From positions 1 through 8,320 of IMG/VR virus record IMGVR_UViG_2563366990_000016: a DNA stretch of 8,320 nucleotides. One strand, given 5' to 3'. Under the pieces are notes generated by a model. That model was not told the origin of the DNA, searched no databases, and saw nothing but the letters and a program-made list of their open reading frames with translations. Shown piece after piece: positions 1 to 7,123 of this stretch. Made by a program: the position numbers and the translations under genes. The DNA is from a virus (taxonomy: Duplodnaviria > Heunggongvirae > Uroviricota > Caudoviricetes). Numbering within the stretch: position 1 is the first letter of the stretch; every line of letters begins with the position of its first letter.

Positions 1-1305
1 TATCCCAGGGACGGCATTCAGCAATATTTTTATGCCATCGCTGAAATTGATGAAGACGGCAACGTGACTGACCTGCGCCCCAGAGGAACCCCGGAAGAGC
101 GCCGCAGTCTGGACGCCCTGAAAAAACACGAGAAATCACGCAACCACCCGGACGCAACGCTGAAAGAAAAGGGCTTCACACAGTTAAGCAGCGCCACCAC
201 CAGTACATCAGAGACACAGGCAGCCACGCCAAAGGCTATAAAGATCGCCATGGACAACGCCGATGGCCGGCTTGCGAAAAACCGCAATGGTGAGGACATC
301 CCCAACAAAGAGCTGTTCCTGATCAACGTGGGCGCACCACGCGTTTATGCAAAAGACGGGTACGTGGGTGAAGCAGGGCAACGCTGGACAACAGAACAAT
401 TCGTGGAATGGCTGAATGAGCGTGGCGCCTTCAGACCAGGACTCTGGATATTCAAAGCCAATATTTCACTTTCCCGGCACAGCGTGCTCACTGATACGGG
501 CTATGGTGATATCTGCCTTGGAGGCTGCCTTATCGAAGTATCAGGCGACATCAACGGGGGGATCATCAGGATCACAACAGGTCTCGAAAGCCCAAACCCT
601 GCCGACATGTACCTCCGCACACAGTTCACCGGGGTTGTTTTAAATAAAGGGAAAAGCACCATCTGGTACCGCACTTACACGGACAAAAACAAACCCACAC
701 CACAGGACATCGGCGCACTGCCTGCAAGTGAGTTGTTACCCGCAGGCGTTCCCCTGCCGTGGCCGTCAGACACCCCGCCTGCCGGTTACGCCATCATGGT
801 GGGGCAGACATTCGATAAAGCACGATATCCCCTGCTGGCAAAAGCCTATCCGGATGGTCGTATCCCGGATATGCGTGGCTGGACAATCAAGGGAAAACCT
901 GCCAGCGGTCGTGCGGTATTGTCACAGGAACAGGACGGCATCAAATCCCACACCCACGGGGGGAGTGTCTCAAATACTGACCTTGGCACGAAAACGACCT
1001 CATCATTTGACTACGGAACCAAAACAACCTCTACAAACGGACAACATGAACACAGCGTCCCCCTGAGAAGACAAGATGGCGGAGGCATAAACTTTGACTG
1101 GCTGGATGGTTCATCGTCCGGTTCTCATATTGGTAATGGATACGTTCCTGCCGCAGGTGACCACCAACATACCGTACCCATTGGCGCACACACCCACACG
1201 CTCGCACTGGGTTCACATGGTCACGGCCTGACCATTAACCCCACCGGTAATGCCGAAAACACCGTTAAAAATATTGCATTTAACTACATCGTGAGGCTTG
1301 CATAA
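1..1305 (+). CDS. Phage side tail fibre protein, C-terminal ~435 aa; 5' end lies upstream of the window
   Basis: Frame 1 is open from nt 1 (no stop before the annotated GTG at 64). Translation carries the conserved tail-fibre motif block [52 protein letters not shown] (nt ~745-895), then five His-x-His motifs (HTH, HEH, HQH, HTHTL, HGH; nt ~950-1230) and a C-terminus [11 protein letters not shown], as recalled for P2 gpH / Mu S / lambda Stf-type fibres. Stop TAA at 1303-1305 overlaps the next start. Confidence 0.85.
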
Positions 1306-1901
1306 TGACCTTTAAAATGAGCGAACACCCACAGACAATTAAAATCTACAACCTGTCAGCCGGAACAAATGAATTTATCGGCGAAGGCGATGCCTGGATC
1401 CCTCCGCATACCGGACTGCCTGCGCACTCAACGGACATTGCCCCGCCTGACATTCCTGAAGGACACGTGGCTATCTTTGATGAGGATGAAAACACCTGGC
1501 AGCTCATGGAAGATCACCGGGGTAAAACCGTCTGGCGTCTGGAGTCGGGAAGCGCCTTACTGATTACTGAGCCGGGCCCGTTACCGGAAAACGTGACCAT
1601 AATAAAACCGGACGGGGAGTTCTGCCGCTGGGACGGGTCATCATGGGCTAAGGATGAAGCGGCAGAACAGGCTTACCGGGTGAGCGAGGCGGAGAATAAA
1701 AAACGGGAATTAATACAGGAAGCAACAAATACAATAAACATCCTTCAGGATGCCGTGGATTTAAATATGGCGACCGACGATGAAAGCGCCCTGCTTCCCC
1801 TGTGGAAAAAATACCGGGTATTACTGAGCCGGACAGACACGGGCAACGCGCCGGATATTGTCTGGCCTGAATCCCCTTCGCCGGATCATCACGCAGGCTG
1901 A
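1305..1901 (+). CDS. tfa: Phage tail fibre assembly protein (Tfa / gpG-like chaperone), 198 aa
   Basis: N-terminus [51 protein letters not shown] and the later [26 protein letters not shown] closely resemble Tfa proteins of E. coli prophages as I recall them. ATG overlaps the fibre stop by 1 nt (taATGa), the usual fibre/chaperone coupling. Confidence 0.85.
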
Positions 1902-1912
1902 CCGGAGGCACC

Positions 1913-2638
1913 ATGACGTGGACAAGAAAAACAATCAGCGTCAGCGCTGACATGCCCCCGCTGAGCTGTTCCGTCATCCCCGTCACACCGTGGACTTACG
2001 GGCTGGGACGATATGAAGAATCGGGGGTATATTTAAGCCCTCCGAACGCCATAAACTGGCTGGCCGGGAAAATGGCCGGAAGCCGTGCATCCGGCGACGT
2101 GACCATTATCATGATTGCCGAAAACACCCACGATCTTTTTATACAGTCAATGGCGGCACTGACCGCCGTTCTGCCCGTGCCGGTATTCACGCAGGCACAG
2201 CGCATGGCACAGGCTGCCGCCAGTCTGAGCACTGACAAAATGCAAATCCCGATCACCACCGACACCCTGCCCGCACCTGTGCATCTTTCCGTTGCCACAA
2301 TGCGCAGCGCAGTCAGTGCCGCCCGTGCAGCACAGGCCAGGCAGCTGGCAGCACAACGCCCGGATGCCGCAGGGCTTCGCCGCCAGATAAGCCGCTTTAT
2401 CAGCAGACGGGCTGGCGCACTTGCCGGACTGGAAGAGGGGATCAGAACACTGGCAGAACAGAAGGCGCAGGCCTGGGTATTTCAGTACCGGGGGTATCAC
2501 CGCGCCGCAGCGGCGGCCATGGTGAAGGATATCCCGGCACCGACCGCCGTACATACCGTTGCCGCACTCCTGGCGGCAGACTCATTAACTGAACTGGGGA
2601 AAATGATCCATGAGCCAGACCGCACTGCTCGCCCTTGA
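1913..2638 (+). CDS. Hypothetical protein (241 aa, Ala-rich), co-transcribed with the tail fibre genes; function unknown
   Basis: ATG at 1913 preceded by GGAGG (1904-1908) and only 11 nt after the tfa stop. Same strand as flanking genes. The antisense ORFs across this span are Cys/Arg-rich and look spurious. No motif I can assign. Confidence 0.5.
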   Translation: MTWTRKTISVSADMPPLSCSVIPVTPWTYGLGRYEESGVYLSPPNAINWLAGKMAGSRASGDVTIIMIAENTHDLFIQSMAALTAVLPVPVFTQAQRMAQAAASLSTDKMQIPITTDTLPAPVHLSVATMRSAVSAARAAQARQLAAQRPDAAGLRRQISRFISRRAGALAGLEEGIRTLAEQKAQAWVFQYRGYHRAAAAAMVKDIPAPTAVHTVAALLAADSLTELGKMIHEPDRTARP

Positions 2639-3152
2639 TGGTGAGGGTATTTTCATGCAGAACATGGTGATTTCGCCCTCGATGCAGTTCCAGGAAAAGG
2701 ACCAGTCCGGCCAGACATCGAGCACCGCGAACGCCGAGCAGGGCATCAAGGCCAAAGAGCTTCGCGTAACCGGGATGATCACCTTTGACAATGAGCGGGC
2801 CCTTCAGCGCATTTTCCAGCTGGCCTCTGCCACCACCGGGGACGGTGCCCTGAAAGTTTACCGTATCGCAAACGCCACCGCTGCCGCCATTAACTTTCGT
2901 GAAGGGACATTTTCCGGGCAGATAGACGCACAGCAGCAGACCGACCGCCTCGCCTGGCAGGTCAGCTTCACATTACGCGAAAGACGAAGCGTACCGGAAA
3001 AACGCCAGGCACGCGCCACCCCCGCCAGCAGCCGTAAACAGACGCCGCAGACGCCCGGCGCAAAAGGCGGGACCGTGGCCGACGAAACACCGGAGAAAAT
3101 GACCTGGTTCGAAGAAAAGGTCCTCAAACCCGTCAATGATGCGCTGGAGTAA
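2610..3152 (+). CDS. Hypothetical protein (180 aa): ~120-aa N-terminal domain plus a charged, Pro/Gln/Lys/Arg-rich C-terminal tail; function unknown
   Basis: ATG at 2610 lies inside the 3' end of the previous ORF (29-nt overlap, different frame) with a purine-rich stretch GGGGAAAA upstream. Stop TAA at 3150-3152 is 2 nt before the next ATG, consistent with translational coupling. Confidence 0.5.
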   Translation: MSQTALLALDGEGIFMQNMVISPSMQFQEKDQSGQTSSTANAEQGIKAKELRVTGMITFDNERALQRIFQLASATTGDGALKVYRIANATAAAINFREGTFSGQIDAQQQTDRLAWQVSFTLRERRSVPEKRQARATPASSRKQTPQTPGAKGGTVADETPEKMTWFEEKVLKPVNDALE

Positions 3153-3154
3153 CC

Positions 3155-4828
3155 ATGAACCCCACTAAACGTCTGTTACTGGGTAACGACACCATTCAGC
3201 TGGTCAGTTGTTCCGTCATGCTTGAGCTGAACGCGTGCGGACGCGGATTTATCACAGCCAGAACAGAGCAGAACTACACCGGGCGCCCCGTTCGTCTCGA
3301 TATCGGATACGGAAACGACCTGGTGCGCTGGTTTACCGGATACGTTGAACGCAGCCAGCCCGCTGAAAACGGCTCGGTGCGGCTTCTGATTCGTGAAATG
3401 GCGGGGATCCTTGATCACCCCTTCCCCTGTTCATTTCAGCACCCGACAATGCGCACGGTCACACAGTGGCTGAGTGAGACCAGCGGGCTGGAAATCATCC
3501 TGCCGGACAACGCGGCTTACACTGACAGACCCGTTCCGCATTTCACACACAGCGGCACGGGCTACGAACTGCTGGCCAGTCTGGGGCGTATTTTCTCCGT
3601 ACCGGATTACATCTGGCATCCGTTACCGGACGGCGGCATTATGGCCGCTGCTGCCGCGCAGGGGATGTTTTCCGGTCGCCCCGTCACCATCCCGCACGAG
3701 TTCAGCCAGGCATCAACGGGCGGGCACAGTATGACCCTCCCGATGATTCAGACGCTGCGACCGGGTGTGGAGGTGAACGGTCAGCGCCTGACGATGGTCA
3801 TGCTGGAAGATGACAACATGACCATCACGTGGACACCACGCAATAAAGCCACCGGCGCCCCCCTCCAGAAGTCCCCTTTCCGTCGCCAGGCTGAAAAGGC
3901 CTTCCCTGAACTGGCATCAGGGCTTCACCTGCCCAAACTGGCACGTGTTGAGGCACCGACCGAAGCCGTCAGCGCGGGCAATATTGCCGACCCGTTCAGA
4001 CCCCGCTACGCGGTGAATCTCCAGCTGCTTGACGAGAACGGCAACCCGGCAGCAGATACGCCCGTCTATAACGCCGTTCCCCTCCCCGTTCCCATGGCGG
4101 GCAGTGAGTCCGGCATGTTCCAGTTCCCGCCACCCGGAACCCTGGTGGAAGTGGGATTTGTGGAAGGCCGGGCGGATAAGCCCTTCATCCGCCAGATAAT
4201 GGCAGAGGGCCACAATCTGCCCGACGTGAAGCCGGGCGAGCAGTTGCAGCAACAGCGCGACGGCGTATCGCAGCGCGTGACGGTCGCCGGAGACTGGGAG
4301 CGCCAGACAGACCAGCGGATACAGGAGACATCACGCGAGCGCGTGGTGAGCGCAGACGAGGAAAAGCGGAGCCTGACCAGCCGGGAGACCACCATACAGG
4401 CAACCGACACAACCACCGTCCTGGGCGTATCCACGCTTCAGGCTGGCGCGGTCACCCATATCACTGAAGAGAACTACAGCATCAGCACGGGCGGGCACAT
4501 GATGGTGGTTGCCGGTACCTGTGAGCGCGACGTGGAAGGCGACACCCAGGACACCGTGGGCGGCAGCCTTACCGAAAGGATTAAGGGCGTCCGTCACAGT
4601 ATTGCGCTGGCGCAGAAGCTGGTTGGCGATACGGTGAAGCTGGGAAACGAGGGCATTAATGTACTGACCATGCTGACGGACCTTGCCGATGTGGTGGAAG
4701 AGCTGGCAGATATTACGGCATCACATACCCACCCCAAAACGGGCACGTCTCCGCAGGCCGCACAGTTCAGCCAGGTCGCTCAGGAGTGCCGCCAGCTTAA
4801 AAATAAATATTCACCAATAATCGAGTAA
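3155..4828 (+). CDS. Putative phage baseplate central spike / hub-like protein (557 aa) with gp5/gpV/VgrG-type OB-fold and His-x-His C-terminal tip
   Basis: Residues ~305-355 (nt ~4070-4220) read VPLPVPMAGSESGMFQFPPPGTLVEVGFVEGRADKPFIRQIMAEGHN, matching the recalled OB-fold signature of gp5/gpV/VgrG spike proteins (P..G..V.V.F..G..D.P.I....N). The C-terminal part has Gly/Val/Thr-rich segments (VLGVSTLQAGAVTHI, GGHMMVVAG, VGGSLTERIKGV, VGDTVKLGNEG) and ends ITASHTHPKTGTSP. The N-terminal ~280 aa are unassigned. No Walker A or nuclease motif seen. Confidence 0.55.
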   Translation: MNPTKRLLLGNDTIQLVSCSVMLELNACGRGFITARTEQNYTGRPVRLDIGYGNDLVRWFTGYVERSQPAENGSVRLLIREMAGILDHPFPCSFQHPTMRTVTQWLSETSGLEIILPDNAAYTDRPVPHFTHSGTGYELLASLGRIFSVPDYIWHPLPDGGIMAAAAAQGMFSGRPVTIPHEFSQASTGGHSMTLPMIQTLRPGVEVNGQRLTMVMLEDDNMTITWTPRNKATGAPLQKSPFRRQAEKAFPELASGLHLPKLARVEAPTEAVSAGNIADPFRPRYAVNLQLLDENGNPAADTPVYNAVPLPVPMAGSESGMFQFPPPGTLVEVGFVEGRADKPFIRQIMAEGHNLPDVKPGEQLQQQRDGVSQRVTVAGDWERQTDQRIQETSRERVVSADEEKRSLTSRETTIQATDTTTVLGVSTLQAGAVTHITEENYSISTGGHMMVVAGTCERDVEGDTQDTVGGSLTERIKGVRHSIALAQKLVGDTVKLGNEGINVLTMLTDLADVVEELADITASHTHPKTGTSPQAAQFSQVAQECRQLKNKYSPIIE

Positions 4829-4842
4829 TTATTCACTTTAAC

Positions 4843-4867
4843 AGGCCGCGCAATGTGGCCTTTTTTA
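4843..4867 (+). terminator. Weak rho-independent terminator candidate after the tail operon
   Basis: AGGCC-gcgcaatgt-GGCCT short stem followed by TTTTTTATT (4861-4869), 15 nt after the stop at 4828. The stem is only 4-5 bp, so this is marginal. Confidence 0.35.
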
Positions 4868-4949
4868 TTCCCCCGACAATAAAAAATATTCATCACCGGA
4901 CATCACCCGCCACGAAAAAACCGTCCGCAGCAGAAAAAAAGATGGACGA

Positions 4950-5530
4950 AACGCCCCACGTAATCCCCACGTAAAACGTCGCGTAACGCCACGTAACGAA
5001 GAAATAATCCCGCCAGCCCGATTCGATCCCCTGACATCAGAAAACGATTTCTGCGCCCCAAAATCGCCGCAAATGGCCGGAAATTTTCGGGGGCGACGTA
5101 ACGCGTAAAGTGACGTAATCGGCGCTACCCCGCACACGCCTCCGGTATTTGTGTACGATAAATTTTGCAAATCGAAAGGGGTGCAAAACACCCCTCCAGG
5201 GCGCGCCATTACTGAGGTTTTCCCTTCTGAATGGTTTTGCACTTTGTGCAAGGTTTTGCAAAAGTGTGCAAAAACTCCGGCTTTCTGAGGATCCCGAAAA
5301 ATTTTAATGCACTGAATAACAAGAGATTTTTAAAATTACGTCACGATCGAAGATCTGAAAAAGGATCCGGTGACGAAAACGGAAAAATCAGGAAAACCAG
5401 AACTGGCGCGGCCTGGCGGGGAGTGGCAGCAAAAATCACTTTTGCACACTTTTGCACAACTGCTCCGAAAAAGGATGGCGAAGGGGAAGGAAAACAGCCG
5501 GATCATCCGTTGCACGTAACGGACGTAAAA
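4950..5530. repeat. Repeat-dense non-coding region: array of (C/G)ACGTAA heptamers, TTTTGCA(C/A) palindromes and phased A-tracts
   Basis: (C/G)ACGTAA at 4957, 4968, 4980, 4990 (spacing 10-12 bp), 5095, 5102, 5112, 5338 (inverted), 5513, 5522. TTTTGCA / TGCAAAA at 5163, 5182, 5235, 5247, 5254 (perfect palindrome TTTTGCAAAA 5254-5263), 5268, and a tandem CTTTTGCACA x2 at 5439-5458. Hairpin AGGGGTG-caaaa-CACCCCT at 5176-5195. A5-7 tracts roughly every 10-11 bp at 5372-5400. No convincing ORF. Confidence 0.5.
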
Positions 5531-5538
5531 GGTAAATT
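5510..5538 (+). promoter_or_regulatory. Putative sigma70 promoter for hok-like unit 1
   Basis: TTGCAC (5510-5515), 17-nt spacer, TAAATT (5533-5538), placed just 5' of where the duplicated unit begins (~5540). Pattern match only. Confidence 0.4.
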
Positions 5539-5690
5539 ACGCGCGGGTGCCTTTCGGCTGACGGCTGGAAGGAATACCTGAAGGCCGGATGTGAAAAGGC
5601 CCCGAGTCAACTAACGTTAACCCGAGGCCCTGACACTTCCTACCTGACAAGTGGAAGGTTAGCGCCTCCCTGTAAAAGGAGTCAAGCGCT

Positions 5691-5831
5691 ATGCCGCAAA
5701 AAACGATCATAGTGAGCATTTTATGCATAACTATTTTGATGATTGTCTGGATGATACACAAGTCACCGTGTGAGTTCAGGCTTAACATCATGTGGTCACA
5801 ATTTGCGGCGTTCTTGCAGTGTAAACAGTAA
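5691..5831 (+). CDS. hok: Hok/Gef-family type I toxin, HokA/PndA-like small membrane peptide (46 aa), copy 1
   Basis: Not in the ORF track (too short). AAGGAG at 5677-5682 sits 8 nt before ATG 5691. Translation MPQKTIIVSILCITILMIVWMIHKSPCEFRLNIMWSQFAAFLQCKQ has the Hok architecture: N-terminal MPQK, one hydrophobic helix, then K-S-x-C-E and AAFL-x-CK, resembling HokA/PndA as recalled. A ~145-nt leader precedes it. Confidence 0.75.
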   Translation: MPQKTIIVSILCITILMIVWMIHKSPCEFRLNIMWSQFAAFLQCKQ

Positions 5832-5921
5832 GAAACCGCAGCGGGGGTGAAAGCCCCCGCTATCCGGTTGCCGGGTTCGGTCGATATGGCACCCCTTTCT
5901 CCATTGGATTACAGACGTATT

Positions 5922-5947
5922 TGCCCGCAATATGCGGGCGTTTTTTT
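5922..5947 (+). terminator. Rho-independent terminator of hok-like unit 1
   Basis: GCCCGCA-ata-TGCGGGC stem-loop (5923-5939) followed by GTTTTTTT (5940-5947). Confidence 0.65.
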
Positions 5948-5964
5948 ACCGTCCCCCTCAAGCA

Positions 5965-5993
5965 TTGCGCACACAAAGGGAAATCAGTACATT
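5965..5993 (+). promoter_or_regulatory. Putative sigma70 promoter for hok-like unit 2
   Basis: TTGCGC (5965-5970), 17-nt spacer, TACATT (5988-5993), just 5' of the second unit. Confidence 0.4.
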
Positions 5994-6148
5994 ACACGCG
6001 GGTGCCTTTCGGCTGATGGCTGGAAGGATTACCTGAAGGCCGGATGTGGAAAGGCCCCGGAGTCAACTTTAATGTTAACCCGAGGCCCTGACCATCTACC
6101 CTAAGCAAGTGGAAGGTTAGCGCCTCCCTGTAAAAGGAGTCAAGCGCT

Positions 6149-6289
6149 ATGCCGCAAAAAACGATCATCGTGAGCATTTTATGCTTAACCATGTTGTTGA
6201 CTGTCTGGATGATACACCGTTCTCCGTGTGAGTTCAGACTTAACATCATGTGGTCAGAATTTGCGGCGTTCTTGCAGTGTAAACCGTAA
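6149..6289 (+). CDS. hok: Hok/Gef-family type I toxin, HokA/PndA-like (46 aa), copy 2
   Basis: AAGGAG then ATG at 6149. Translation MPQKTIIVSILCLTMLLTVWMIHRSPCEFRLNIMWSEFAAFLQCKP, a handful of substitutions from copy 1. Not in the ORF track. Confidence 0.75.
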   Translation: MPQKTIIVSILCLTMLLTVWMIHRSPCEFRLNIMWSEFAAFLQCKP

Positions 6290-6486
6290 GAAACCGCAGC
6301 GGGGGTGAAAGCCCCCGCTATCCGGTTGCCAAAGGTTCGGTCGAAAGTCGCACCCTCACACAAAAGGCACAAAGAAAAATAAATATCCTCCGGCATAGCC
6401 GGAGGTTTTTCAAATGCGCCTATAAGGCTCTCTTACCAGCCGCGCCCTAACAGGCGCACACGATCTGACATTTGCATCCAACTTCG

Positions 6487-6945
6487 TTACTTACGGCCCG
6501 TAAACGGGCTGCCCGGATAGGGAATCGATAACTGCTCTCCCATTTTATCCTCTTCAAGCTGGTGCTTTATGTAATCCTGTATCTTCGCCGTGTTCTTACC
6601 CACCGTATCGACGTAGTACCCTCTGCACCAGAACTCTCTGTTCCTGTATTTGAATTTCAAATCACCAAACTGCTCGTAAAGCATCAGACTGCTTTTCCCT
6701 TTCAGATATCCCATAAAGCCGGATACACTCATTTTGGGCGGGATCTCCACAAGCATATGGATATGATCTGCACAGCATTCAGCTTCAAGAATCCGTACGC
6801 TTTTCCACTCACACAGCTTTCTCAAAATACTGCCTATTGCTCTACGCTTCTCTCTGTAGAACACTTGTCTTCGGTATTTTGGCGCAAAAACTATGTGATA
6901 TTTACAGTTCCATCGGGTGTGCGCTAAGCTCTTTTCGTTCCCCAT
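6487..6945 (-). CDS. tnpA: IS200 transposase TnpA (Y1 HUH transposase), 152 aa
   Basis: Translation from the internal Met (MGNEKSLAHTRWNCKYHIVFAPKYRRQ...HIHMLVEIPPK...GYYVDTVGKNTAKIQDYIKHQLEEDK) carries the HUH motif (HIH) and the catalytic tyrosine region, and matches IS200 TnpA as I recall it. The annotated ORF start at 6996 is an upstream extension. The ATG codon spans 6943-6945 and is preceded by GGGGG. Confidence 0.9.
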   Translation of the reverse strand: MGNEKSLAHTRWNCKYHIVFAPKYRRQVFYREKRRAIGSILRKLCEWKSVRILEAECCADHIHMLVEIPPKMSVSGFMGYLKGKSSLMLYEQFGDLKFKYRNREFWCRGYYVDTVGKNTAKIQDYIKHQLEEDKMGEQLSIPYPGSPFTGRK

Positions 6946-6950
6946 TGGGA

Positions 6951-7020
6951 CCCCCTTTTGATTTCTTGTTTGACACTTGCAGTTGCCAGACCGCAAGGTG
7001 TTTTAACAAATCAAAAGGGG
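6951..7020 (-). promoter_or_regulatory. IS200 5' leader stem-loop that sequesters the tnpA ribosome-binding site
   Basis: CCCCCTTTTGATTT (6951-6964) is complementary to AAATCAAAAGGGG (7008-7020). The arm next to the start codon contains the GGGGG Shine-Dalgarno on the minus strand. This fits the known translational repression structure of IS200. Confidence 0.5.
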
Positions 7021-7094
7021 TTTTAATAACTGGCTCAAAGCTGAAAGCTTTCCGGAACCCCCAGCCTAGCTGGGGGTTTTCTGTGCACAACAAA

Positions 7095-7123
7095 GCCCGC
7101 AGCGTAAAAACTGCGGGCTTTTT
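7095..7123 (+). terminator. Rho-independent terminator-like hairpin just outside the IS200 left end; possibly the displaced terminator of hok-like unit 2
   Basis: GCCCGCAG-cgtaaaaa-CTGCGGGC followed by TTTTT (7119-7123). The stem sequence GCCCGCA is the same as in the unit-1 terminator at 5923-5939. Confidence 0.5.

Follow-up and report, generated by a model that had tools for sequence, protein, structure and literature searches.

What do two tandem units of about 456 bp each, lying at 5507-5947 and 5962-~6379 of the window (the whole stretch of 8,320 nucleotides analysed here), encode, and how could their expression be held in check when neither has the mok frame found in the hok system of plasmid R1? 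[quoted passage not shown] Tandem Hok/Sok loci are real but already known, and the array is a member of one of the best-studied toxin-antitoxin families. Since both the peptides and their arrangement have already been catalogued, the finding is largely ordinary, and its remaining value is that of a test case. Three features of it, the absence of a conserved mok, the divergence of the Sok tail and loop, and the placement of an IS200 element, appear unexplored.

The two toxin genes lie on the plus strand and start with ATG: hok-1 at 5691-5831 (46 aa, MPQKTIIVSILCITILMIVWMIHKSPCEFRLNIMWSQFAAFLQCKQ) and hok-2 at 6149-6289 (46 aa, MPQKTIIVSILCLTMLLTVWMIHRSPCEFRLNIMWSEFAAFLQCKP). An earlier reading of the letters (the sequence-only reading) had described 46-aa frames that are led by a Shine-Dalgarno sequence and have the Hok architecture, and had called for a Pfam search. 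Both peptides exceed the gathering score of the HOK_GEF profile (PF01848; 26.0 and 27.8 bits, respectively, versus 22), with peptide residues 9-44 aligned to profile positions 7-42 of 42, and both match PHROG 251 (E = 2e-19). The description itself was accurate, as AAGGAG is found at 5676-5681 and 6134-6139, each time 9 nt before the ATG, and C12, T14, C27-E28 and position 37 of both peptides have a spacing identical to that of the published Hok logo (C16, T18, L30-C31-E32 and E41 in the 2026 catalogue numbering, for proteins of ~50 aa with an N-terminal hydrophobic helix). The Leu of the logo is Pro26 in both peptides, and at position 37 copy 1 has Q and copy 2 has E. The 46-aa frame is intact in 40 of the 46 homologous units, and the variable columns of the coding sequence number 24, 11 and 30 at codon positions 1, 2 and 3, position 2 being the least and position 3 the most variable. 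Frameshifts in a poly-G tract are present in some relatives. These sequence comparisons support the assignment of both frames to the Hok/Gef family. The same reading had called the frames unannotated, which is correct for the six-frame track that it used but not otherwise: the genes are already annotated by PGAP, in RefSeq the peptides of hok-1 and hok-2 have identical entries, WP_001135716.1 and WP_001135720.1, respectively, each under the name 'Hok/Gef family protein', and each peptide occurs on ~1000 contigs (RefSeq identical proteins).

Two more precise identities were rejected. The peptides share the MPQK N-terminus and the AAFL.CK C-terminal motif of HokA of E. coli K-12, and HokA (NF007290) is the best NCBIfam match of both, but their scores of 36.3 and 37.9 bits are far below the equivalog cut-off of 89, so that the window peptides are not HokA. 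A hokW identity, suggested by the PHROG label 'MokW-like', was also ruled out, HokW being 51 aa long, 44% identical to R1 Hok and thus in a different peptide cluster; on the 46-aa peptides this label is a family label only. Both window peptides are present verbatim in the Hok catalogue of Escalera-Maurer et al. (bioRxiv 10.1101/2025.08.07.668861), as entries >1293 and >1307 (the latter being hok-2) of the 60%-identity cluster 82. The toxicity assay of that study included a clone of the cluster representative, 82_1289 (80% identity to copy 2), and the three homologues that it reports as non-toxic do not include 82_1289 (bioRxiv 10.1101/2025.08.07.668861), from which we infer that the window peptides would be toxic when expressed. 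The catalogue set aside Mok, Sok and the mRNA elements on purpose, and it does not deal with the lack of mok, the variability of the Sok tail or the insertion of IS200.

The arrangement was also read correctly from the letters, as two tandem units of ~455 bp that are not a recent identical duplication. A repeat finder returned direct repeats of 225 nt (5648-5872 and 6106-6330, 94% identical) and 73 nt (5532-5604 and 5987-6059, 93% identical) at an offset of 455-458 nt, the two units are 87% identical overall in pairwise alignment, and the peptides are 85% identical, with seven substitutions (I13L, I15M, M17L, I18T, K24R, Q37E and Q46P). Homology within the family covers 5532-5899 and stops at ~5899, a few nucleotides downstream of the 3' fold-back element of hok-1. 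The chromosome that carries the prophage is of the E. coli type. Related prophages have one, two or three hok units at the same end, which adjoins serS, zapB or, in this window, flk. A Mu-like transposable prophage, prompted by repeated TTTTGCACA motifs, was dismissed because the gene set of the related prophage is P2-type (integrase, Cox, replication endonuclease, Ogr, GpO, P2-family capsid and gpM proteins). A third, inverted hok remnant was considered for a 16-nt inverted match at 5059-5074 to the FAAF-coding segment, and since no Hok-like frame was found on the minus strand around 5059-5074, the match was treated as chance. Relatives of the hok unit adjoin tail and lom genes in Stx phages.

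Such a setting has precedents. Islets of 2-6 genes account for 13.5% of chromosomal hok in Escherichia, and hok is enriched in prophages (bioRxiv 10.1101/2025.08.07.668861); type I loci are known for occurring in tandem (PMC4147584, PMC3919570). [quoted passage not shown] The R1 system is a single plasmid copy, whereas the locus of the window is prophage-borne and tandem.

The predicted hok-1 promoter is at 5510-5538 on the plus strand (-35 TTGCAC at 5510-5515, a 17-nt spacer, -10 TAAATT at 5533-5538, predicted start G5545) and that of hok-2 at 5965-5993 (TTGCGC, a 17-nt spacer, TACATT, predicted start G6000). The sequence-only reading had noted a promoter-like element in each unit; a strict sigma-70 consensus scan of 5400-6480 found no promoter, and our calls are based instead on hexamer conservation across homologues, the TTG of the -35 being invariant in 46 homologous units and the -10 TA.ATT being kept in nearly all of them (one has TACAGT), with a spacer that varies freely. 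The predicted full-length hok-1 mRNA of ~403 nt (5545-5947) ends at an intrinsic terminator at 5922-5947, as indicated by a terminator scan and fold, and the predicted hok-2 mRNA (6000-6410) now enters the right-end hairpin of IS200. The leaders of the two units are 146-149 nt long. Rfam RF01794 aligns to 5545-5702 in hok-1 (E = 2.7e-5, score 35.8) and to 6000-6160 in hok-2 (E = 1e-8, score 48.7), both scores being below the gathering value of 59; model position 1 falls at 5545 and 6000, and the match is full length, from predicted transcription start to start codon.

In the full-length MFE fold of both copies, the two ends of the RNA pair with each other. The tac-like 5' element of hok-1 (5545-5561) pairs with the fbi-like 3' fold-back element GGTCGATATGGCACCC (5879-5894), and in hok-2 the fbi-like element GGTCGAAAGTCGCACCC (6339-6355) pairs with 6000-6014. 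When the 3' side is truncated, the 5' end is predicted to refold into a local hairpin, formed in hok-1 with 5563-5579. Across 43 distinct homologues, fold-back helices 1-2 are paired in 99% of cells with one-sided changes only and no compensatory double changes, so that the comparative support for these helices is one of conservation, not covariation. The consensus structure is paired in 99.5% of cells (versus 31-45% in slid controls) and includes ten pairs with changes on both sides. A further hairpin at 5661-5690 (predicted -11.2 kcal/mol, z = -3.0; helices 6-7 conserved) would sequester the Shine-Dalgarno sequence of hok-1, and that of hok-2 is likewise predicted to be held in a hairpin. 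The conserved 3' hairpin that had been reported for each unit corresponds to a post-stop hairpin at 5840-5861 (z = -3.6; helix 15, in which four pairs are changed on both sides among homologues) and at 6298-6319, where it is identical to copy 1. In these respects the locus is like R1 hok/mok/sok (parB), which has a small hydrophobic toxin of Pfam HOK_GEF, a ~150-nt leader, a ~400-nt mRNA, a 5'-3' fold-back and a sequestered Shine-Dalgarno sequence, the RNA features being predicted in the window. The distinctions are that the window peptides are 30% identical to R1 Hok, with 46 aa versus 52, and that the toxins have their own strong Shine-Dalgarno sequence, AAGGAG.

On the opposite strand, each leader is predicted to encode a Sok-like antisense RNA. 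Putative Sok-1 (~56 nt, 5593-5648, minus strand) would have a single-stranded 5' tail of 17-19 nt (5648-5630), a 16-bp terminator stem-loop (5629-5598) and a UUUUC tail, with a predicted fold of -26.7 kcal/mol (z = -5.0), at a position equivalent to that of R1 Sok in the Rfam alignment. Its predicted promoter (5656-5685, minus strand) comprises a -35 TTGACT at 5685-5680, an 18-nt spacer and a -10 TAACCT at 5661-5656. Both TAACCT, a weak match to a -10, and the -35 TTG are the same in all 46 units; as these bases also lie within mRNA helices, their conservation does not uniquely indicate a promoter. Putative Sok-2 (~59 nt, 6048-6106, minus strand; fold z = -3.5) has its -35 at 6143-6138 and its -10 at 6119-6114, and again a free 5' tail and a 16-bp terminator stem, the latter followed by only UUU. 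The putative Soks would resemble R1 Sok, a ~60-nt cis-antisense RNA in which a free 5' tail precedes the terminator stem, whose target is in the leader well upstream of the toxin start and whose promoter, at the corresponding location, has the form TTG...-17/18 nt-TA.CCT.

A further distinction from R1 is that neither window copy has a mok frame overlapping the toxin gene. In R1, translation of hok requires translation of mok (PMC4147584). Here, there is no upstream ATG, GTG or TTG in either alternative frame of either copy; the open part of the -1 frame starts only at -28, and the -2 frame meets a stop at +22/+25. The sequence-only reading was therefore right that no mok-like frame overlaps the toxin gene and that both alternative frames meet stops near its start. 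An invariant AUG (5589 in copy 1 and 6044 in copy 2) is found 45 nt into the mRNA. In copy 1 the frame that it opens is stopped at once (AUG-UGA, one codon), and in copy 2 it runs for 15 codons; its length in the 46 relatives varies between 1 and 61 codons, and just 6 of them have it overlapping hok. A conserved short leader frame ending at the invariant UAG at 5660-5662 was also considered and rejected, its frame and start codons not being conserved. Because neither copy has a mok frame, repression most likely occurs through occlusion of an upstream ribosome-entry site together with RNase III cleavage, and not through mok-hok coupling; candidates for this entry site are the invariant AUG described above and a standby site. 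If this is true, Sok would block an entry site next to its own target, with cleavage by RNase III. As mok is needed in R1 and absent here, repression is the step of our model that is least secure.

The greatest divergence between the two copies is found where antisense pairing would begin. Hypervariable segment 1 (5630-5648), which corresponds to the Sok-1 5' tail and its mRNA target, has 19 alleles among 46 units, and its mean pairwise difference of 0.35 exceeds both the 0.27 of third codon positions and the 0.005-0.09 of the tac element and the adjoining Sok-terminator stems. Between segment 1 and segment 2 (6088-6106; Sok-2 5' tail and target), 8 of 21 aligned positions differ, versus 35 of 337 elsewhere between the copies (Fisher p = 0.0014). 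Predicted duplexes between Sok and its target reach -35 kcal/mol for cognate pairs and -13 kcal/mol for non-cognate pairs. Since the divergence is concentrated in those parts of Sok that are predicted to be single-stranded, its tail and its loop, cross-regulation between the copies is improbable, each antisense RNA probably acting on its own hok alone. Diversifying selection on the tail was considered and is not demonstrated: complementarity of a cis-antisense RNA is automatic, so that an unconstrained single-stranded segment would also be expected to drift fast. Ibs/Sib, Ldr/Rdl and ZorO-OrzO/ZorP-OrzP are similar in having tandem copies with antisense RNAs that differ in their recognition regions; they belong to unrelated toxin families, and copy-specific repression is a prediction in the window. 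A broader and more doubtful proposal is that in this Hok cluster without mok Sok acts directly, that the tails and loops of co-resident Soks are kept different, and that prophages thereby stack orthogonal addiction modules, which, if true, a competitor's Sok would be unable to neutralise. The interest of the locus lies in two things together, namely that the cluster has no conserved mok, without which hok of R1 is not translated, and that its variation is concentrated where antisense pairing starts. If confirmed, it would mean that Sok can be coupled to Hok expression by a second route, and would illustrate how type I systems become mutually insulated after duplication.

Our model of how each copy could work is as follows. 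A weak constitutive promoter would produce a stable mRNA of ~400 nt, whose full-length form, with the 5' end paired to the 3' element, is predicted from folds and conservation to be inert because the Shine-Dalgarno sequence and the AUG are each locked in helices. Trimming of the 3' end would remove the fold-back element and allow the 5' end to refold, as indicated by the predicted fold and by analogy with R1 hok. An unstable antisense RNA of ~56-59 nt from the opposite strand would then pair, via its single-stranded 5' tail, with leader nucleotides ~49-104, blocking expression and marking the duplex for RNase III, as in R1 hok/sok and hokW/sokW. Upon loss of the antisense RNA, for example through loss of the prophage or shut-off of host transcription, the 46-aa peptide would be translated, and it may insert in the inner membrane and kill or arrest the cell, in line with the reported toxicity of the representative of its cluster.

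The loci could instead be active with a main role other than prophage addiction, such as aiding lysis on induction or abortive infection against other phages, a possibility that we regard as tentative. The hokW-sokW pair of Sp5 raises lysis and phage release after mitomycin C (PMC8621323), hok is about four-fold enriched in prophages (bioRxiv 10.1101/2025.08.07.668861), and the Stx phage relatives next to tail and lom genes would also fit, but HokW, at 51 aa, belongs to a different cluster, and according to a section heading of the catalogue hok is not enriched near defence systems (bioRxiv 10.1101/2025.08.07.668861). The sequence itself does not discriminate between these roles.

It is considerably less probable that one copy or both have decayed into inactive relics, as most K-12 hok loci of E. 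coli have, and would still be recognisable but unable to kill. Copy 2 is the stronger candidate, because an IS200 element separates it from its own terminator. This element of ~709 bp (6380-7088, minus strand, ends ambiguous by 2 nt), whose tnpA matches NCBIfam transpos_IS200 with 147.7 bits and which contains an STnc490 match at 6955-7078 (146 bits), is inserted 24 nt downstream of the hok-2 fold-back element. It has pushed the native intrinsic terminator, GCCCGCAG...CTGCGGGC followed by TTTTT, ~709 bp downstream to 7095-7123 (plus strand). Uninterrupted prophages read ...GAAAAACAAAGCCCGC... across the insertion point, and in relatives L001 and L002 the native terminator directly follows the last hok unit in the alignment. 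An uninterrupted prophage end is present, for example, in E. coli 04-00955. Loss of this terminator might alter 3' processing of copy 2, and in K-12 disruption of the fbi element and of mRNA processing has been attributed to an IS186 that lies downstream of gef/hokC (PMC3562002). The absent or truncated mok, with an upstream frame that is just AUG-UGA in copy 1 and 15 codons long in copy 2, and the poly-G frameshifts of some relatives also point towards decay. Against this, both toxin frames, Shine-Dalgarno sequences, fold-back elements and antisense modules are intact, and IS200 lies after, not before, the fold-back element of copy 2, whose predicted fold is unchanged; the right-end hairpin of IS200 (6387-6405) and its T-run are terminator-like and can serve as a terminator. 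Moreover, the presence of each peptide on ~1000 contigs and the toxicity of 42 of the 45 catalogue homologues tested, the representative of this cluster not being among the exceptions, count against inactive relics.

Long antisense frames over the array had been reported and do exist on the minus strand (84 aa at 5537-5791 and 134 aa at 5992-6396), but the notion that these, the longest frames of the region, are the real genes and the 46-aa frames incidental can be set aside almost entirely, as their open length varies from 48 to 119 codons among homologues and is thus not conserved, RefSeq does not annotate them, the codon-position variation fits the plus-strand frame, and the plus-strand peptides match a curated family. 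Length-filtered tracks of open reading frames miss small genes such as hok and show spurious antisense frames in their place. Finally, a scan of species-representative genomes with the peptide alignment as query returned a single locus, an E. coli phage-type hok on an 857-bp contig labelled Xanthomonas pisi, which is probably contamination.

The tandem duplication proposed in the sequence-only reading, with a 46-aa Hok-type ORF in each unit, is confirmed as an observation, and its interpretation is supported. A repeat finder returned a 225-nt direct repeat (5648-5872 and 6106-6330, 94% identical) and a 73-nt one (5532-5604 and 5987-6059, 93% identical), at a spacing of 455-458 nt, and pairwise alignment of the two units gives 87% identity overall. 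The ATG-started ORFs lie on the plus strand (hok-1, 5691-5831; hok-2, 6149-6289), each with the expected Shine-Dalgarno (AAGGAG, 9 nt upstream), and their peptides differ, as had been noticed, at several residues (seven; 85% identity). The suggested Pfam check was run, and both peptides exceed the HOK_GEF gathering score (26.0 and 27.8 bits against 22); both also match PHROG 251 (E = 2e-19). They are 30% identical to the toxin of plasmid R1. HokA identity was rejected, since they reach 36-38 bits on the NCBIfam HokA equivalog, below its cut-off of 89; they are thus members of the Hok family, not HokA. The description of these genes as unannotated holds for the six-frame track only, because RefSeq already has identical proteins (WP_001135716.1 and WP_001135720.1), annotated for E. 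coli 04-00955 under the name "Hok/Gef family protein", and each exact sequence is recorded on about 1000 contigs. Long antisense ORFs are indeed present on the minus strand (84 aa and 134 aa). An alignment was built from 46 homologous units, 43 of them distinct, taken from the window, from three E. coli loci and from 59 viral contigs; homology consistently covers window positions 5532-5899. Across this set the open antisense frame varies in length between 48 and 119 codons, and the plus-strand 46-aa ORF is intact in 40 of the 46 units; its variable columns at codon positions 1, 2 and 3 (24, 11 and 30 of 46) follow the pattern of a coding frame.

The tandem Hok finding as such is already known, since the peptides, the islets and the prophage enrichment are all found in a recent catalogue of 1264 Hok peptides (Escalera-Maurer et al. 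2026 preprint, 10.1101/2025.08.07.668861). There, islets (2-6 copies within 2 kb) contain 10% of Hok genes; they are ascribed to local duplication and comprise 13.5% of chromosomal hok in Escherichia; prophages are four-fold enriched in hok, and 42 of the 45 homologues tested were toxic. Both window peptides stand verbatim in its supplementary alignments (>1293 and >1307), and 82_1289, which belongs to the test set and shares 80% identity with copy 2, is not one of the three homologues that lacked toxicity. The authors state that Mok, Sok and the mRNA were left unanalysed. Three points appear unexplored: the absence of a conserved mok, the clustering of variation within the recognition parts of Sok, and an IS200 insertion.

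Positions 1-6383 are 96-98% identical to prophage right ends in several complete E. coli genomes. In strain 04-00955 the genes of the full prophage are of P2 type (integrase, Cox, replication endonuclease, Ogr, portal, terminase, GpO scaffold, P2-family capsid, tail genes, tail fibre and assembly protein, plus three further proteins, one baseplate-like); the two hok genes come next, and then the host gene serS. The neighbour of this prophage end depends on the strain: in another it is zapB, with three hok units, and in the window it is flk (97-99% identical to E. coli flk). Versions with a single unit were also found. Since one, two or three units occur at the same end, the array is variable-copy cargo, located on the attR side of a P2-like prophage in a chromosome of Escherichia or Shigella. 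Stx-converting and other phages carry single units of 74-90% nucleotide identity. At window positions 1-4828 and in L064, this P2-like prophage has the tail fibre and tail-fibre assembly genes, then three further genes of 241, 180 and 557 aa before the array, the last product being baseplate-like (PHROG 2258). Between this gene and the array, a stretch of about 700 bp without a convincing gene holds six copies of TTTTGCAMA on both strands (5163-5458; 0 of 200 shuffles reach six), with inverted arrays at 5243-5274 and 5437-5460; together the copies may be a protein-binding array. A 116-aa plus-strand ORF (5231-5581) overlaps the hok-1 promoter and leader; it has a RefSeq counterpart ("hypothetical protein", WP_225276694.1), gave no match in a PHROG search, and is probably a spurious call.

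A promoter-like element for the toxin mRNA (TTGCAC or TTGCGC, 17 nt, TAAATT or TACATT) lies 5' of GGGTGCC; its TTG is invariant, the -10 reads TA.ATT in nearly all units (TACAGT in one) and the spacer varies freely. A strict promoter scan called neither of the two window sites. Position 1 of Rfam RF01794 aligns at the predicted transcription starts, 5545 and 6000 (E = 2.7e-5 for copy 1 and 1e-8 for copy 2, both under the gathering score). Although named "sok antitoxin", this family, as aligned here, models the hok leader and not only the short antisense RNA, since the match runs on the sense strand (5545-5702 and 6000-6160) from the mRNA start to the toxin start codon. In minimum free energy folds of the full-length RNAs, the 5' end (5545-5559; 6000-6014) pairs with a 3' element (5879-5894; 6339-6355), and in RNA cut before this element the 5' end of both copies is predicted to refold into a local hairpin, the behaviour described for the tac and fbi elements in the hok mRNA of R1, whose refolding is triggered by 3' processing (PMC4147584). 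The 81 pairs of the consensus structure are kept in 99.5% of cells; sliding the partners by 1-3 columns lowers this to 31-45%. Ten of these pairs have changes in both partners, and such compensatory changes fall in the post-stop hairpin (four pairs) and within helices of the coding region; the fold-back helices show one-sided changes only (G-C/G-U, U-A/U-G). The Shine-Dalgarno is locked in a predicted hairpin (5661-5690, z = -3.0), and the start codon region (AUGCCGCAAA) is predicted to form helix 8 with the segment that codes for the conserved FAAF motif (5691-5700 with 5802-5811; 6149-6158 with 6260-6269). As this helix persists in 99.5% of cells over the homologues, the peptide's most conserved part may also be under constraint at the RNA level.

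On the minus strand, a promoter-like pair (TTGACT at 5685-5680, an 18-nt spacer and TAACCT at 5661-5656; equivalents at 6143-6138 and 6119-6114) has its -10 hexamer and the TTG of its -35 invariant in all 46 units; these bases also lie within mRNA helices, so that their invariance is not specific to a promoter. If transcription began near 5648 or 6106, the products would be RNAs about 56 and 59 nt long (Sok-1, 5593-5648; Sok-2, 6048-6106), with the predicted Sok layout of a free 5' tail, single-stranded over 13-17 nt, and a terminator stem-loop of 16 bp (z = -5.0 and -3.5, respectively). Mean pairwise difference is highest in the terminator loop (0.46) and the 5' tail (0.35; 5630-5648 and 6088-6106), against 0.27 at third codon positions and 0.005-0.09 in the tac element and flanking terminator stems. 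The tail has 19 alleles in the set of 46 units, and within arrays the tail diverges far more than the remainder of the unit: the window copies differ at 8 of 21 tail positions versus 35 of 337 elsewhere (p = 0.0014), and one viral contig shows 7 of 20 tail differences with identical coding and 3' regions (p = 3e-6). Diversifying selection is not proved by this divergence, because complementarity is automatic for a cis-antisense RNA and an unstructured segment is free to drift. As the predicted tail-target duplexes are far weaker for non-cognate (-13 kcal/mol) than for cognate pairs (-35 kcal/mol), the copies are probably insulated from one another, a property already known from other tandem type I loci.

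The absence of a mok-like overlapping frame was borne out in both window copies: the -1 frame, used by mok in R1, does not open until -28, the -2 frame ends at +22 or +25, and no ATG, GTG or TTG precedes the hok start in either. An AUG located 45 nt into the mRNA (5589; 6044), directly 5' of the stretch that is complementary to Sok, is invariant in the 46 units. Its ORF is AUG-UGA in copy 1 (5589-5594), 15 codons in copy 2 (6044-6091) and 1 to 61 codons overall; five Stx-phage relatives (L030, L033, L037, L039, L053) have a mok-like 61-codon frame that ends at +83, overlapping hok. This ORF may represent a mok in decay or a ribosome-entry element. Since it overlaps the hok start in only 6 of the 46 units, these five included, mok is not conserved in the cluster. 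In R1, hok translation requires mok translation (PMC4147584), which makes control of Hok by Sok the least secure step of our model. Sok would repress by occluding an upstream ribosome-entry site, together with RNase III cleavage; hokW-sokW depends partially on RNase III and Hfq (PMC8621323). That mok-independent control operates with orthogonal Sok alleles stacked in prophages is a tentative proposal, and we consider it rather unlikely.

The last hok unit of uninterrupted prophages has the sequence ...CACAAAGAAAAACAAAGCCCGCGGCG...CTGCGGGCTTTTT, an intrinsic terminator. A 709-bp IS200 (6380-7088; tnpA on the minus strand; STnc490 146 bits, at 6955-7078; NCBIfam transpos_IS200 147.7 bits) has inserted in the window 24 nt 3' of the copy 2 fold-back element and parted copy 2 from its native terminator, now at 7095-7123. 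The IS200 end hairpin (6387-6405), followed by TTTTT, scores as a plus-strand terminator and occupies the terminator position. This junction was not found in any complete E. coli genome of the collection. The predicted fold of copy 2 retains the fold-back. An IS186 that lies 3' of gef/hokC in K-12 is considered to disrupt both the fbi element and the processing of the mRNA (PMC3562002), whereas here the element is spared; inactivation of copy 2 is possible but not indicated.

Two minor observations concern the relatives. In some phage-borne relatives (L059-L063), a poly-G tract of 4-8 G inside the hok ORF (A4 alignment columns about 254-262) varies in length and so shifts the frame, leaving the peptide truncated or extended; either slipped-strand on/off variation or a sequencing error could account for this. 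An 857-bp contig of the Xanthomonas pisi DSM 18956 assembly (L004, NZ_JPLE01000227.1) carries an E. coli phage-type hok unit with a peptide identical to that of the Stx-phage group, and is most likely assembly contamination rather than a Xanthomonas hok.
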